Shown here in pieces: positions 969 through 34,017 of a DNA stretch of 64,000 nt. The stretch spans positions 1-64,000 of IMG/VR virus record IMGVR_UViG_3300002026_002465; one strand, given 5' to 3'. Position 1 is the stretch's first letter. Each line of letters opens with the position of its first letter. Below the pieces are notes generated by a model that was not told the DNA's origin, ran no database searches, and was given only the letters and a program-made list of their open reading frames with translations. A program made the translations under genes and the position numbers. The stretch is from a virus.

Positions 969-1826
969 ATGTTATTAGCTGAAATCAATAAAAACTTAAA
1001 AAATAAAGATTTATTATCTTTTGTATCAAATAACTTTAATTTCTTTATAAGGTATCTTTACAAAACCGTTGAAAAAGTTATACCTTGTAGTGTTAAAAGT
1101 ATAAATGGCAATGATATTGCTAATATGGGTATCATCATAGACTCTTTATTATCTAATAAATATGCTTTTGATTTTTTCTCTCAAAACCATGATATGTCAC
1201 TAGACACTACCACCGGTGAAATAAACATAGAATTTCATGAAGATAATGGCATCTTTAATATAAAAATATATAGAGATAGTGTCAATTCATTTACTAATTT
1301 TGCATATACACTAGAATCTTCTTTTAGTGATTTTGCACAAAAATTTGAAAAAGCCATGCTAGAAATTAAATCATCAGGTTTTAAAAAGAAAAAAGAATTA
1401 TCATTTGCTTCTACAGATATGAAAGCTTTAAACGCTTTCTTGAAAAAAGTTTATTTAAGATTTAGTTTTAAAAAAGCAAGTAAAACTAGTGATTCTTGGA
1501 AAATAGAGATATTCTCAGATACATATAGTTTATTTATTAAAGATATTGTAAAAAAGAGGGTATTACAAGATGATGAAAAACTTGTACAATTTCAAATAGA
1601 TTTTTTAAAAAAGCACGCTAAATATATAGTTGATTTTTTTGAAAGAAGAGGTTATTATATAGATGAAATGTGGAGTGCTAATTTTTATATAATATTAATG
1701 GCTAAAAAAACTCAAGTAAAAGATAGAAAAGATATTATTATAAAAAAATTTGATACTCTTGAATCAGAATATGATTATTCTTTAGATGATTTTTATCAGT
1801 TAGTTATTAGAAAAATGTTTGAATAA
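969..1826 (+). CDS. Hypothetical protein
   Basis: 285-aa ORF, AAGATAAT motif 11 nt upstream of ATG. Confidence 0.7.
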   Translation: MLLAEINKNLKNKDLLSFVSNNFNFFIRYLYKTVEKVIPCSVKSINGNDIANMGIIIDSLLSNKYAFDFFSQNHDMSLDTTTGEINIEFHEDNGIFNIKIYRDSVNSFTNFAYTLESSFSDFAQKFEKAMLEIKSSGFKKKKELSFASTDMKALNAFLKKVYLRFSFKKASKTSDSWKIEIFSDTYSLFIKDIVKKRVLQDDEKLVQFQIDFLKKHAKYIVDFFERRGYYIDEMWSANFYIILMAKKTQVKDRKDIIIKKFDTLESEYDYSLDDFYQLVIRKMFE

Positions 1827-3494: not shown

Positions 3495-3893
3495 ATGTCT
3501 AAGATAGATTCAATATTGCGTATTGCCAAGAATTATTATGATAATACTGAAGACAATGGGAGTCAGAGATTTAAGATTTCTGCCATTATAACTGATAGTT
3601 TTGGGCATATTATCTCTAAAGGTAATAATTCTTATTCTAAAACGCACCCTATACAAACAGAGTATGCAAACAAAGCTTCGAGACCTCACAAAGTATTTCT
3701 TCATGCAGAAATATCAGCTCTTGTTAAATGTAGAAAAATCCCTCATAGTGTTTATGTTGTAAGATATCTTAAAAATGGCATGCCTGGTGATGCCAAACCA
3801 TGTCCTGTTTGTGAAATGGCTCTTAGAGAGGCTGGTGTAAAAAAAGTTATTTATACATCAGAAAGTGGAATTGAAGAATACAACTTGGCATAG
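3495..3893 (+). CDS. Zinc-dependent cytidine/dCMP deaminase-like protein
   Basis: HAE and PCPVC zinc-binding motifs. Confidence 0.85.
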   Translation: MSKIDSILRIAKNYYDNTEDNGSQRFKISAIITDSFGHIISKGNNSYSKTHPIQTEYANKASRPHKVFLHAEISALVKCRKIPHSVYVVRYLKNGMPGDAKPCPVCEMALREAGVKKVIYTSESGIEEYNLA

Positions 3894-19571: not shown

Positions 19572-19681
19572 GCTTTCATATCTGGTTTGAAGCTAGGCCA
19601 GCTTCTAGTAAAAGACTCAAAAAGTCTACAGTAAAGGGTTCTGCTTAACTGCAGAGAGGAGTTCGAGTCTCCTTGAGAGCT
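19572..19681 (+). ncRNA. Oversized tRNA-like RNA (110 nt, no assignable anticodon)
   Basis: GCTTTCA/TGAGAGC acceptor and GGAG-TTCGAGT-CTCC T-arm enclosing three hairpins. Confidence 0.55.
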
Positions 19682-27489: not shown

Positions 27490-27533
27490 AAAAGAATCTA
27501 GTATTAGATTCTAATAGTTTACTAGGAGTAAAT

Positions 27534-27839
27534 ATGAAGATTGTATCGTCAAAGAATGGAAATGTGGTGTTTGAACATGTTGGTCGTAATGGAGAGGCCA
27601 AGAGTCTTTCTGTAAGGGTAGACAACGAAAGTCTCAAGTTTATCAAGAGTAATGCAAGCAGCATTCGCTATGATAGCACAAATGATGCTATCAGGTATGT
27701 AGGTAATGGGGTTCATACCTCACTTGCCAGGGCAATTTGCATGAACATCAACCCTGATCTTGATGCTGGCAAGAATATCCAGTTTGCTGATGGCAACAAG
27801 TTCAACCTCAAAACCAGCAACTTCGAAATCTCTGAATAA
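27534..27839 (+). CDS. Degenerate HNH-fold protein
   Basis: SLARAI...IQFADGNKFNLKTSNF matches the LHR.I...VDHIDGNK.NN..SNL HNH pattern but lacks catalytic His residues. Confidence 0.45.
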   Translation: MKIVSSKNGNVVFEHVGRNGEAKSLSVRVDNESLKFIKSNASSIRYDSTNDAIRYVGNGVHTSLARAICMNINPDLDAGKNIQFADGNKFNLKTSNFEISE

Positions 27840-27844
27840 TAATT

Positions 27845-27865
27845 TGGGGCTTCGGCCCCATATTT
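27845..27865 (+). terminator. Intrinsic terminator
   Basis: TGGGGC-TTCG-GCCCCA then TATTT. Confidence 0.6.
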
Positions 27866-27877
27866 GGGCCATTATTT

Positions 27878-28428: not shown

Positions 28429-29268
28429 ATGGATAAAACATATATATGTAAAATTTGTGGAAAACAATTTAAAAATGGTCAAGCTTTTGGAGGTCATGTT
28501 GTTGTTCATTCTGAACAATGGATATCCTCAATGAATAAAGTTGCAAAGAAAAAAGTTTTACAAAGAAATATTATAGTTAAATCATGTGAAAAATGTGGAA
28601 CTAAATTTGAAGTAGAAAGAATAGTATCAAAAAATGGAATAGAGAATATTTCAAACAAAGAAAAGAGATTTTGCTCTAGAATATGTGCAAATGGTCATAA
28701 AGTTTCAGAAGAAACAAAAAAGAAAATATCAAATGGAAGTATGGGAAACACTTCTTGGAATAAAGGTTTTAATAAAGGCTTAGGCTTTAATAAAGGTTCA
28801 AGAATAAGTTGTATATCATGTGGAAAAGAAATTATAAAAAACATTTCACAAATGTGTTTTATTTGTTATAAAAAGAGTGGCCTACATTCATTAAAAATGA
28901 AAGGAAAAACAGGTGGCCTAAGACATGGCGGTGGGCATGGTAAAAACGGTTGGTATAAAGGTTATTGGTGCGATTCTTCTTGGGAACTTGCTTTTGTTAT
29001 TTATAATTTAGAAAATAATATTTCTTTTATAAGAAACAAAGAAGGTTTTGAATATACTTTTGAAGGAAAAACATATAAATACTATCCGGATTTTATTTTA
29101 GAAGATGGTTCATACGTAGAAATTAAAGGATATAAAACTAATCAAGTTCAAGCTAAAATTGATCAGTTTAAATATAAATTACAAATTTTAGAAAAGAAAG
29201 ATATGCAAGCATATATTAATTATGTAAAAGAAAAATATGGCGAAAACTATATTAAATTGTATGAATAA
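28429..29268 (+). CDS. Free-standing homing endonuclease-like protein (zinc fingers, NUMOD-like repeat, C-terminal PD-(D/E)XK nuclease)
   Basis: C2H2 finger CKICGKQF...H..VH, CSRICA, ETKKKIS, DSSWE...YYPDF...YVEIKGY. Confidence 0.8.
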   Translation: MDKTYICKICGKQFKNGQAFGGHVVVHSEQWISSMNKVAKKKVLQRNIIVKSCEKCGTKFEVERIVSKNGIENISNKEKRFCSRICANGHKVSEETKKKISNGSMGNTSWNKGFNKGLGFNKGSRISCISCGKEIIKNISQMCFICYKKSGLHSLKMKGKTGGLRHGGGHGKNGWYKGYWCDSSWELAFVIYNLENNISFIRNKEGFEYTFEGKTYKYYPDFILEDGSYVEIKGYKTNQVQAKIDQFKYKLQILEKKDMQAYINYVKEKYGENYIKLYE

Positions 29269-29278
29269 AGTTGGATAA

Positions 29279-29303
29279 GTGGGTTCGACTCCCATCTGGC
29301 GCT
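29279..29303 (+). pseudogene. 3'-half tRNA remnant (T-arm plus acceptor strand)
   Basis: GTGGG-TTCGACT-CCCAT-CTGGCGC-T with no matching 5' half. Confidence 0.55.
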
Positions 29304-29318
29304 AATTTTTAATAGGAG

Positions 29319-29678
29319 ATGAAGGTGATTGATAAAGATCTTTTCAAAAAAGAACACATCAATGTAAAAATTGGAAATCGTTTTGGAGATTATGATCAGG
29401 TTATTGATGAGTTTTTTTTCAAAAAGGTTAAAAAGTTGAAGGGTGAGATTTCATCTTCTGATGGAAGTGAGTATAAGCTTATTTCTAATAATGGGGATAA
29501 GTTTGTAATAGATTTTATATTGGCTGAAAGAGAGTTTGAATGTTTGAATGAAAAGATTGCTTCATTTGAAAGTGTAACGATTAGGTGTTATGGAAAGGTT
29601 AAGGAGTTAGATGGAGAGGATTATTTATCCATTGATGATATTGATGTAATTAATGAAACAAATTACGATTTGGAGTAA
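29319..29678 (+). CDS. Hypothetical protein
   Basis: AGGAG RBS, 119 aa. Confidence 0.65.
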   Translation: MKVIDKDLFKKEHINVKIGNRFGDYDQVIDEFFFKKVKKLKGEISSSDGSEYKLISNNGDKFVIDFILAEREFECLNEKIASFESVTIRCYGKVKELDGEDYLSIDDIDVINETNYDLE

Positions 29679-29729
29679 ATAATAAGCATATTTATTAGTA
29701 TATAAAACAGTTATTTAAAAAAAGAAAAT

Positions 29730-30600
29730 ATCGGGTGTTTATGCTCGTTAGAATAGTGTGTAGTGATATACATAAAGGGAAAAAGGAATGTGACTCCTCC
29801 CGCTGTAGAAATACAGTTCATGTAAACAAGCCAACTTTCCTATGATTTCACCTCCAAGTGGAATTTTTAGAGACATTAGATCATGGAAGTTTTCGAGGCC
29901 AACGGTGTAGAAAACGGTTATCGCAAGTAACACGTGATGTGCTAAACTAATTATCTATGAGAAAGAATGGTAGTTATTCGGTATGAGTCGTCGCTGACGA
30001 GTGCTGATTAGCAGTTTGATAGATTTGAGGGAAAACTTAGTCTTGAAAAACTACAAAGTAGGTTTGCCGCTGAAATGTATGCAAAGTGTTGTATTCTGTA
30101 TCTCAAAAGGATATGGAGCAACTGGTCAAGCACTTTGTGGTCACGATAATTAGCCAATTAAATTTGGCACTAGTATTTTTGGAATTAGTAATTAATGCAA
30201 AAGACTTGACCAGTAATAAGTGAAAGTGGCTTAACTCTAGACTTCGAAAGAAGAATCTAGAACACAAATGTTCGCAAGACAAATGTGTTTGATTGGAAGG
30301 TGCATGGAGGATCTTAGCGGATCTTAATTGCTCGCAAGGCAACCAGTAACTAGAATGTTGACTAGCTTGTTATGATGAGAGAAACGCCGCTCTCTAAAAA
30401 AGGCAGCCATGCTACTGAACATCCTTGAGGATGTGGATAAAAACTTAACCAAAGGTGTAGCAACCAGAGGGTACGAGTTTGAATGAAGTGGTATAGAGCA
30501 TGTAATCTCAGTGCTCTTAATTTAATTCTCCTTGAATAAGGAAGAATTTTTTATTGGTGATAATGGTTAAATGAGGTTCGATTCCTTTAATCACCATCAG
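29730..30600 (+). ncRNA. Large ornate structured RNA, GOLLD-like
   Basis: ~0.9 kb without a credible + strand ORF, GC-richer than flanks, many GNRA-capped hairpins and long-range stems; inside tRNA island; AAGCATAT motif upstream and terminator downstream; boundaries approximate. Confidence 0.65.
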
Positions 30601-30647
30601 CTAGGAATCTTTGAAATGCTTGGTTGTGCAGCCATTAAATACTTTTG

Positions 30648-30676
30648 TCTCCTATCACTGATAGGAGATTTTTTTT
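30648..30676 (+). terminator. Intrinsic terminator
   Basis: TCTCCTATC-ACT-GATAGGAGA then T-tract. Confidence 0.75.
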
Positions 30677-30697
30677 GCATACTTTACTCTAGAGGTT

Positions 30698-30910
30698 ATG
30701 ATGATAAATTATAGACTTAGTTTTAGAGGAAAAAAGACCAAGACTGCTTTGTTCAAAAATAGTTTATATAATTATATAAATAATGGGGTTACTAAGTTTT
30801 TTACTTATGATGGTGAGGTGTTAGAGTTTAGTGGTGAAAAAGAAGATTATGATAAAGTGGTGAAATTCGCAAATTATCATAATGGAGAGGTTGTTGAGGC
30901 AAAAGAATGA
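30698..30910 (+). CDS. Hypothetical protein
   Basis: GAGG RBS. Confidence 0.55.
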   Translation: MMINYRLSFRGKKTKTALFKNSLYNYINNGVTKFFTYDGEVLEFSGEKEDYDKVVKFANYHNGEVVEAKE

Positions 30911-31422
30911 TAAAATGGAAGAGGACTGGAAATAAAGAATATCCTAAAGAAGAACAAGAGTGTTTTATATATTTTTTTCATACTGGATTTGAAAAAAGTG
31001 TCTTCACAACTGAAAAAATAAAAGAGCTTGATTGTACAGTGACTTGTTTTTCAGGCTCTGGTGGATGGTTAGGAGATGAAGATGTTTTATGGATATCTAT
31101 AGAAGAATATGAAACCGGTGACATTCCAGAAATACCAATTTCATATTCTGAAGATAAATGTTTTATGAAATGGGATGACCCTAGATTAATTATTAAACAA
31201 GTAAAATTGAAAGAAGATTATTTACTTAGAATAAAAGAAATATCTTATGAAAAACAGTTTTACAAAGATCAGATTTTTGGTGTGGTGCAAGAATTAAATC
31301 TACAACAAAGCCAATTTTGGATAAAGGATTGTTTAACTCCTCTATCACAATGTATTTATTCTGAAGGACAGAATTTAGAACAAACATGGTTACCAACAGA
31401 ATTATGTGAGGTTGTTGAATAA
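30907..31422 (+). CDS. Hypothetical protein
   Basis: ATGA overlap, 171 aa. Confidence 0.65.
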   Translation: MIKWKRTGNKEYPKEEQECFIYFFHTGFEKSVFTTEKIKELDCTVTCFSGSGGWLGDEDVLWISIEEYETGDIPEIPISYSEDKCFMKWDDPRLIIKQVKLKEDYLLRIKEISYEKQFYKDQIFGVVQELNLQQSQFWIKDCLTPLSQCIYSEGQNLEQTWLPTELCEVVE

Positions 31423-31464
31423 AAGCATACAAATACCTTAATTTATTAAAGATAATTAAGGGGA

Positions 31465-31863
31465 ATGATGAAAAAAATTTTAATGATTGACGATAGTCCT
31501 TTTTTATATGCACAATTTAAAAATATTTTTTTAAAAGATTTTAACTTTGAGTATTTGCAGATTTTGGATCCTTTTAAAACACAAGAAACAATTGATGAAT
31601 ACAAACCTGATTTAATTATTTTAGATGTTAATTTTAATCTCCCTATAGATGGGTTAGAATTGGGTTTATTTATTAAAAAAAATTATGATATTCCAATAAT
31701 TTATTTTTCAGGAGTAGGTTTAGATACTGCAAAAGAAATTATTGATAAAGTTAATCCTGAATGTTTTATATTAAAGTTAAGTTATTCAGATGATCTTATT
31801 AAGATTATACTTTATAATATTATCAAAAAGGTTGAACGTGCTAAAAAAAATAATACTGATTGA
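31465..31863 (+). CDS. Stand-alone response regulator receiver domain
   Basis: ILMIDDS, PDLIILD, DGLEL, PIIYFSG, FILK. Confidence 0.88.
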   Translation: MMKKILMIDDSPFLYAQFKNIFLKDFNFEYLQILDPFKTQETIDEYKPDLIILDVNFNLPIDGLELGLFIKKNYDIPIIYFSGVGLDTAKEIIDKVNPECFILKLSYSDDLIKIILYNIIKKVERAKKNNTD

Positions 31864-33675: not shown

Positions 33676-33713
33676 GCATACATTATTATGTCCAGCAATG
33701 CTGGACATTATTT

Positions 33714-33784
33714 GCTTCTATAGCTTAAAGGTAAAGCAGGAGTCTCTAAAACTCTTTATCTCAGTTCGATTCTGAGTAGTAGCA
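33714..33784 (+). tRNA. Amber suppressor tRNA (anticodon CTA)
   Basis: GGAGT-CTCTAAA-ACTCT anticodon arm, standard D-arm, CTCAG-TTCGATT-CTGAG T-arm; one T.T acceptor mismatch; A73. Confidence 0.8.
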
Positions 33785-34017
33785 TATGAGTAAATCTTGT
33801 AGTGGTTGTAAACATTTAAGTGTCTATTCTTCAGGTAAGTTTTTCTGTGGTAATGCACAAAAAGCTTATGATTCTGGAGTTGAATTTTTTGGTGATAGTC
33901 CTGGTTTATTTCGAATAAACAAATTAACAGACGTGCATTGTTCAGTATATGAAAAATGATGATAAATATAATATTATTTAAAGATATTTTATATTAATAA
34001 AATGGAGGAATAATATT

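Follow-up and report, generated by a model that had tools for sequence, protein, structure and literature searches.

A divergent GOLLD RNA gene in a phage tRNA island, with a tRNA-like minihelix directly behind it

GOLLD RNA, family RF02032 of Rfam, was reportedly described by Weinberg et al. in 2009. To our knowledge, the biological role is known for no GOLLD. The Rfam model covers the 3' half of the molecule alone. The cage structure of the family was solved by cryo-EM in 2025 (PMC12286853). Briefly, the 833 nt env-38 GOLLD forms a protein-free 14-mer cage with D7 symmetry (cryo-EM, PDB 9MEE; PMC12286853). The 3' domains of this cage make the ring, the 5' domains make the caps, and the linker points inward (PMC12286853, PMC12990946). 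In addition, the inner hairpins of a junction make self-kissing contacts between the half-shells (PMC12286853, PMC12990946). The 700 nt GOLLD of S. agalactiae is a 12-mer (PDB 9L0R) and its 3' domain, alone, a 10-mer (9LMF) (PMC12990946). Copy number depends on both the 5' domain and the junction hairpins (PMC12286853, PMC12990946). Note that the 5' domain, which is the cap domain in the solved GOLLD cages (PMC12286853, PMC12990946), lies in a 5' half described as less conserved (PMC12286853). Location in phages, with tRNA arrays, is already published for GOLLD (PMC12286853, PMC6582537). The mycobacterial examples sit in horizontally acquired tRNA arrays, of ~32-37 genes, with an HNH endonuclease (PMC6582537). 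ROOL, which also occurs in phages near tRNAs, forms a cage too (PMC12286853).

Our analysis concerns a 64,000 nt stretch of DNA, hereafter the window, comprising positions 1 to 64,000 of record IMGVR_UViG_3300002026_002465. The complete record, from an IMG/VR virus, is 177,948 bases long (178 kb) and 74% complete according to CheckV. It holds a baseplate wedge gene. No match to the Gp23 capsid family was found in the record, and most of its large ORFs have no PHROG. Hence, phage type is assigned from the baseplate gene. We scanned the whole window with Rfam 15. The sole large-RNA match was GOLLD (RF02032), at 30081-30514 on the + strand only, with a score of 176.4 bits against a gathering score of 150 (E 6.7e-48). 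The 434 nt alignment runs end to end, using model positions 1-416 of 416. The remaining 34 Rfam matches in the window are all tRNAs, and the whole record contains a single GOLLD copy. An initial annotation, made from the letters alone, had proposed a GOLLD-family member in a phage tRNA island; the full-length match, above the gathering threshold, bears this out. The spirochaete host that it called probable is a guess. ROOL (RF03087) and OLE, named alongside GOLLD in that annotation, gave no match at the gathering score, nor at E <= 1 across 29000-31500. In the latter cmscan search, nothing credible was detected besides GOLLD. The score is just 26 bits over the cut-off, and the alignment includes several non-canonical pairs and a 22-nt insertion. 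Even so, the GOLLD signature elements (the CAAAA loop, GCAAAAG, GAAAG and the terminal GUAAUCUCA loop) are all seen in the cmscan alignment. We conclude that the 0.9-kb gene-free stretch is, with high confidence, the gene of a GOLLD RNA. The RNA would be about 780 nt in total, made up of the 434 nt 3' domain and a 5' domain of ~345 nt. It is a new, rather divergent member of a family already known and structurally solved. The result accounts for 0.9 kb of 'empty' DNA in the annotation of a large uncultured mat phage and sets the limits of the elements on either side.

The setting, a phage record with a tRNA array alongside, is that of other GOLLD RNAs. ARAGORN finds at least 34 tRNA genes in the window, with 32 upstream of GOLLD, within 12 kb, and two downstream. 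Within this island, 0.4 kb upstream of GOLLD, is an ORF for 279 amino acids (28429-29268, + strand) that has a C2H2-type zinc finger and a NUMOD3 motif, and so resembles a homing endonuclease. Orphan T-arm motifs (GTTCGAnTC-type), outside the called tRNAs, are found at 19661, 19906, 24569 and 29283. The T arm at 29283 has a 3' acceptor strand and no matching 5' strand in the window. Hence, it is a tRNA fragment, and a split tRNA is ruled out. An amber-suppressor tRNA, with anticodon CUA and labelled Pyl by ARAGORN, is encoded at 33713-33785 (+); the genome reads well under code 11. We also considered the GC-rich gap at 27491-27876 as a second structured RNA. It instead contains a gene for 101 amino acids (27534-27839, +), between tRNA-Arg and tRNA-Met, with a ribosome-binding site and a GGGGCUUCGGCCCC terminator.

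The 3' domain begins with a P14-type hairpin at 30081-30140 (+), corresponding to RF02032 positions 1-63. This first hairpin has the conserved CAAAA loop, at 30104-30108, and a 9-nt bulge. The rest of the conserved domain, aligned by cmscan to model positions 120-416, occupies 30197-30514 (+) and has the conserved GCAAAAG at its start (30197). The same alignment then shows 30213-30221 paired with 30365-30373 in an enclosing helix. Next come two hairpins, one with TCTAGA/TCTAGA strands (30236-30261) that contains the CTTC-GAAA-GAAG stem (30242-30253), and one with AACACA/TGTGTT strands and a UCGCAAG-type loop (30262-30288). A three-way junction has two inner hairpins, at 30310-30323 and 30328-30342, the second of which is the TTGC-TCGCAAG-GCAA stem. 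Further downstream are the CATCC-TTGA-GGATG hairpin (30419-30434, with the named stem at 30420-30433), a longer hairpin carrying the 22-nt insertion, and a terminal hairpin, with its GUAAUCUCA loop at 30502-30510, that ends at 30514. All lie on the + strand. A base-by-base check of the modelled pairs found every GOLLD helix of the 3' domain to be present. The stems named in the initial annotation all pair as it described, and map onto canonical GOLLD helices. Its extent for the RNA, 29730-30600, does contain the 3' domain; however, the conserved RNA ends near 30514 rather than at 30600.

Between the first hairpin and GCAAAAG is a variable linker of ~55 nt (~30142-30196), a length typical of GOLLD loci. 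The linker is closed by a long-range helix, 30123-30130 with 30205-30212 (+), in which all pairs are standard. More fully, the ACTGGTCAAG/CTTGACCAGT stem is 10 bp long (30121-30130 with 30205-30214), with 8-10 standard pairs, and links the first-hairpin bulge to the strand that follows GCAAAAG. A three-motif pattern supplied other GOLLD loci, in which we examined the equivalent fixed site alongside a shifted control. Of 96 loci, 93 have at least 7 of the 8 positions paired at this site; with the control, 2 of 96 do. The strands differ in sequence from locus to locus; examples are UGACGGAC/GUCCGUCA, ACUGGACG/CGUCCGGU and CUGUGGGG/CCCCACGG. Thus, the long-range stem predicted in the initial annotation consists of standard pairs, at a site kept in 93/96 other loci, and the linker-closing helix is conserved by covariation. 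No embedded tRNA was found in the linker at ~30142-30196. The GOLLD RNAs of two other loci, L043 and L100, do have a tRNA inside the linker. In L043 (2584-3542, minus strand, of an IMG/VR contig) ARAGORN calls this tRNA as Ile, with anticodon TAT. The same contig has a circularly permuted tmRNA gene (RF04321, 101 bits) directly after GOLLD, within an array of more than 20 tRNAs.

We next turn to the elements that frame the gene. The motif noted upstream, at 29684, is a copy of AAGCATAT (29684-29691, +), which we regard as a candidate phage promoter element because it is over-represented. The window has 22 copies, where 5 are expected, and 20 are on the + strand; most are 10-30 nt before a ribosome-binding site or tRNA. 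This four-fold excess is almost all on the coding strand, and the motif is usually followed by an A/T-rich, TATA-like run. Sites include 9505, 12009, 18035, 22018, 26631, 29684, 46183 and 52811, and are mostly in the first 60 kb of the record. From this distribution, AAGCATAT is probably part of a phage-specific promoter, which would place the start of the GOLLD transcript near 29700. Downstream, the terminator placed by the initial annotation at 30648 is recovered by a terminator scan as a strong intrinsic terminator at 30647-30677 (+), with a 10-bp stem (30647-30669), a 3-nt loop and T8. The downstream layout nevertheless needs amending, since an additional terminator-like element comes first. 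Starting 10 nt after the end of GOLLD, a hairpin of 10 pairs and one bulge (30524-30548), found by folding and with its pairs checked, precedes a U-run; the whole element spans 30524-30555 (+). Its bulge explains why the simple terminator scan did not pick it up.

Immediately after this hairpin, at 30556-30599 (+), is a 44 nt tRNA-like minihelix. Hence, this segment is a separate element and not, as the extent to 30600 had implied, part of the RNA. It consists of an acceptor stem and a T arm, with pairs checked, and has neither a D arm nor an anticodon arm. The acceptor stem is 7 bp (GGUGAUA/AAUCACC, with one A.A mismatch); a 9-nt AUGGUUAAA linker, a T arm with a UUCGAUU loop, a discriminator A, and then UCA, complete the element. 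Neither the Rfam tRNA model (RF00005) nor ARAGORN calls a tRNA at 30556-30599, and the whole record has just one copy. Using models R2 and R3, we found an equal armless architecture directly behind GOLLD in three other loci (L003, L071 and L049). The recurring features are a 7-bp acceptor stem, a linker of 9-11 nt starting AUGGU, a 5-bp T stem, the UUCGAUU loop and the discriminator A. The acceptor and T stems of these three loci differ in sequence and still pair. Furthermore, L003 and L049 have a second minihelix directly in front of GOLLD. The bracketing pairs are at 2638-2683 and 3592-3634 (minus strand) in L003 and at 737-774 and 1626-1725 (+) in L049, where the downstream minihelix has an insertion of ~50 nt. 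No further lineages with the minihelix were found with R3, in 100 sources, or with R2, in the remaining loci. Of 111 other loci, 13 have a full tRNA-Met that begins 21 nt past the GOLLD 3' motif. Taken with the minihelices of L003, L071 and L049, this indicates that a tRNA-type element at the GOLLD 3' edge, be it full tRNA-Met or armless minihelix, is recurrent.

What might such an element do? tRNA punctuation, and tRNA-like 3'-end processing, are familiar from mitochondrial transcripts and MALAT1-mascRNA. Minihelices of acceptor and T arm are minimal RNase P substrates. The presence of minihelices on both sides of GOLLD, in one other lineage, suggests tRNA-style end processing. A role for the minihelix in processing, or as a handle, is nonetheless something we would put forward only tentatively. 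In the broader form of this idea, which we also hold to be rather doubtful, the minihelix would represent a conserved class of armless tRNA mimics. These might punctuate GOLLD, through RNase P and RNase Z cuts, or serve as handles for cage-targeted tRNA-binding machinery. Somewhat easier to accept, and slightly favoured by us, is that the element at 30556-30599 is a scar; that is, a tRNA gene that has lost its D and anticodon arms and has no part in GOLLD maturation. The orphan T-arm fragments elsewhere in the island (19661, 19906, 24569 and 29283) fit with this, as does the terminator-like hairpin that stands between GOLLD and the minihelix. A minihelix is also beside GOLLD in just two lineages of ~119 loci. 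However, a scar does not readily explain why the architecture recurs, in L003, L071 and L049, with different stems that still pair, nor why L003 and L049 have one copy per side of GOLLD. The tRNA-Met 21 nt past the 3' motif, in 13/111 other loci, also argues against it. Our literature search found no mention of GOLLD together with a minihelix. The tRNA-like stub directly behind GOLLD is thus a fresh detail beyond the known family. If armless tRNA mimics do act here, they offer an experimental entry to the maturation and function of GOLLD.

The scar reading concerns the minihelix. Could GOLLD itself be a decaying, non-functional remnant carried in the tRNA island? We looked for relatives. With blastn, no match was found among GenBank phages. 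Neither of two flanking proteins, P0003 and a 685-aa ATPase, has a close relative in IMG/VR. Two exact-word scans of JGI metagenomes gave, in one case, nothing and, in the other, a single chance 20-mer (L124). In a word index, the stretch is found whole in a single microbial-mat study, probably its source, and metatranscriptomes contain ~20% of its words. Contigs from four RNA runs, belonging to four studies of freshwater, lake water and sediment, match 29737-30151 and 30211-30491 with 90-97% identity. Several align over their full length, and one, covering 30053-30245, crosses the linker with 2 differences. Note that these contigs report presence only, rather than ends, strand or level, and that the libraries may contain DNA. 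Matching begins at 29736/29737 and stops, in two studies, at 30491, where contig ends are uninformative. The four runs have no cover on 29400-29654 and 30522-30900, so are uninformative for the minihelix and both terminators. We set aside numerous short contigs on 30086-30124; they have unlike flanks and are the first hairpins of other GOLLDs.

Differences between the RNA contigs and the window track the predicted structure. Among 14 changed helix states, 13 are still standard pairs and eight are double changes. The latter include C-G to A-U at 30245/30250, G-C to C-G at 30270/30280, and U-A to C-G at 30305/30345. Five further double changes, all in one contig, are in the first hairpin, where every upper-stem pair is kept. 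The exception is 30088 G>T, which breaks one pair. Two runs lack both A29807 and U29812 in the 5' domain; these are partners in a GNRA hairpin, which thus becomes one pair shorter. The second position of its GAAA loop varies from A to C or U, both compatible with GNRA, and a change at 29921 converts a U.G pair to C-G. The variants therefore indicate that structure is under selection, and hence that the gene is not in decay. Other points could be read in favour of decay, namely a score moderately over the cut-off, the non-canonical pairs, the hairpin insertion, and nearby tRNA fragments (29283, and 30556-30599 if a stub) suggesting that the island gathers debris. Yet relatives at 90-97% identity occur in four unrelated studies, their differences are biased towards preserved or compensated pairs, all model helices are intact, and a promoter-like motif and terminators frame the gene. 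A remnant is, consequently, very improbable, and we favour a GOLLD gene maintained for its structure. Close relatives of it are widespread among RNA libraries from freshwater and sediment.

Upstream of the 3' domain, ~345 nt (29737-30080, +) are ORF-free and raised in GC. We assign this segment as the 5' domain; its distal part is divergent. Distal elements are the GNRA hairpin already mentioned (29803-29816), a hairpin at 29846-29863, and a CGCAA-loop hairpin at 29917-29931 that is supported by variants. The proximal sub-domain (29973-30051) comprises a hairpin (29973-30012), a helix (30014-30051) and a conserved UCUUGAAAA segment. All are on the + strand. The minimum free energy fold of the 5' domain alone was uninformative (z -1.7), conflicts with the variant-supported hairpin at 29917-29931, and was not used. 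The three-motif pattern retrieved 97 + 6 stretches from IMG/VR and 17 from GTDB, none of them close to the RNA of the window. The pattern-only GTDB matches (L107-L123) are in assemblies labelled as many phyla, the labels including Patescibacteria, Ignavibacteria, Cyanobacteria, Bdellovibrionota, Planctomycetes, Bacteroidota, Lachnospiraceae and two archaeal MAGs. The nearest of the pattern-defined loci are L054, with 59% over 487 nt, and L043, which reaches 65% over 139 nt of the 5' domain. Scores of 207.3 bits for L054 and 174.8 bits for L043 confirm that the two are GOLLDs. About 80 of the 119 loci have one well-conserved, aquatic, 5' domain in common, to which the 5' domain of the window has no detectable similarity. 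Searching with a profile of this large aquatic class, using nhmmer, gave one short motif, GAGGNCAACGNUGUAG, at 29895-29910 (E 0.03), which we rejected as too weak.

The proximal part is different. In the final ~120 nt of the 5' domain, the RNA of the window can be aligned with L043 and L054, and the three show compensatory changes. A covariance model (R1), made from these three RNAs only, matches 25 further GOLLD loci, in every case on the GOLLD strand and 87-149 nt before GCAAAAG. In the matches, 95% of cells are paired, compared with 30-48% for controls with slid partners, and 14 of 22 pairs have double changes; because the alignment was fitted to the model, it leans towards structure. We conclude that the proximal sub-domain, 29973-30051, is canonical GOLLD, and that the distal part, 29737-29960, is lineage-specific. 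No DNA relative near enough for covariation in the distal part was found in IMG/VR, JGI metagenomes or GenBank phages; its support comes from variants in close RNA-library relatives. A near-repeat links the two domains: CAACGGTGTAGAAAAC (29900-29915, 5' domain) resembles CAAAGGTGTAGCAACC (30450-30465, in the 22-nt insertion of the 3'-domain hairpin). The 5' copy overlaps GAGGNCAAC...UAG, the sole motif that this 5' domain has in common with the aquatic 5' class. The near-repeat may be a repeated tertiary-contact module.

The divergent 5' domain bears on whether the locus might belong to a new ornate RNA family that is GOLLD-like in style only, a fallback offered by the initial annotation. Apart from the weak relatives L043 and L054, the distal domain has no detectable sequence relative in 119 pattern-defined GOLLD loci, and the blastn search was empty. 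Against this, the GOLLD covariance model matches end to end and above its curated cut-off, and this excludes the alternative. Moreover, the RNA has the loops specific to the family and the helix that closes the linker, it has a proximal 5' sub-domain in common with canonical aquatic GOLLDs, and a variable 5' half is itself a described GOLLD trait (PMC12286853). We thus attach hardly any weight to a new family, and retain GOLLD.

As expected for an RNA gene, the stretch has little coding potential. Between its flanking genes, 29319-29678 (+) and 30698-30910 (+), no + strand ORF exceeds 50 amino acids, in agreement with the earlier view that ~0.9 kb have no credible frame on that strand. The longest ORF on either strand, of 79 amino acids, has a TTG start and is on the minus strand. 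GC content is, as had also been noticed, above that of the flanks: 0.37-0.39 over 29700-30600, compared with 0.23-0.31, and 0.29 for the whole record. That the stretch codes for small proteins, rather than RNA, is close to impossible since the short frames that do exist (50 and 45 aa on the + strand, and the 79 aa TTG frame) span none of the conserved blocks, variants in relatives track base pairing and not codon positions, and the covariance model explains the whole 3' half.

How might the GOLLD RNA be made and assembled? We propose that transcription would proceed rightward from AAGCATAT at 29684, giving a primary transcript of ~850 nt with its end at the hairpin-U element, 30524-30555. After read-through of this terminator, RNase P could release the RNA by cutting where the minihelix begins (30556), and the terminator at 30647 would serve as a second stop. 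By homology to the env-38 and S. agalactiae GOLLDs, ~10-14 copies would then assemble, protein-free, into a hollow dihedral cage. The 3' domains would form the ring and the 5' domains the caps, with the ~55-nt linker facing the interior. Because the ring-domain helices and both junction hairpins are kept, a cage of 10-14 copies is expected, and we judge this likely by analogy. The junction hairpins, which make the self-kissing contacts in env-38, are both present and lead us to guess at a larger, env-38-like assembly. Note that cage size is not predictable since the cap domain is divergent. The tRNA island, of at least 34 genes, and the adjoining homing-endonuclease-like ORF favour a role linked to tRNA or translation. 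The likeliest single role would be a part in the phage's supply of tRNAs or in its translation while it infects, with the RNA storing or protecting cargo related to tRNA; even so, we think a role of this kind on the unlikely side. A member with a distal cap domain unlike both solved GOLLDs, and a ring that keeps both junction hairpins, would be useful for probing how the cap sets cage size. Knowledge of the family is unchanged by the new member; the lead is the armless tRNA-like element at the GOLLD edge.

Finally, we compared the locus with described systems. Like env-38, the RNA of the window has a full 3' domain with the modelled helices, the CAAAA and GUAAUCUCA loops and both junction hairpins. 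In both, too, a covarying helix closes the variable linker, the 5' domain is separate and measures ~350-420 nt, and the gene belongs to a phage and has tRNA genes beside it. The two differ in the distal 5' domain, in which, for the RNA of the window, no similarity to the aquatic, env-38-type class could be detected. The 22-nt insertion in one 3' hairpin, and an overall length ~50 nt shorter, are further differences. The S. agalactiae RNA is of the same family and shows that a reduced or different 5' domain still gives cages. However, it is without P21b and several 5' helices, whereas our RNA keeps both junction hairpins and is ~80 nt longer. As in mycobacteria, the gene is inside a tRNA array and next to a homing-endonuclease-type gene, here the NUMOD3/zinc-finger ORF. 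The mycobacterial GOLLDs differ in having a pseudo-tRNA inside the linker, while the linker in the window is plain and the tRNA-like element is behind the RNA. ROOL and OLE are likewise large ornate RNAs, but are unrelated in sequence and fold. With respect to tRNA punctuation, the window differs in that a terminator-like hairpin is between GOLLD and the minihelix, and cleavage here is hypothetical. The likeness is that, in both situations, a tRNA-shaped element abuts a long non-coding RNA where an end is needed.
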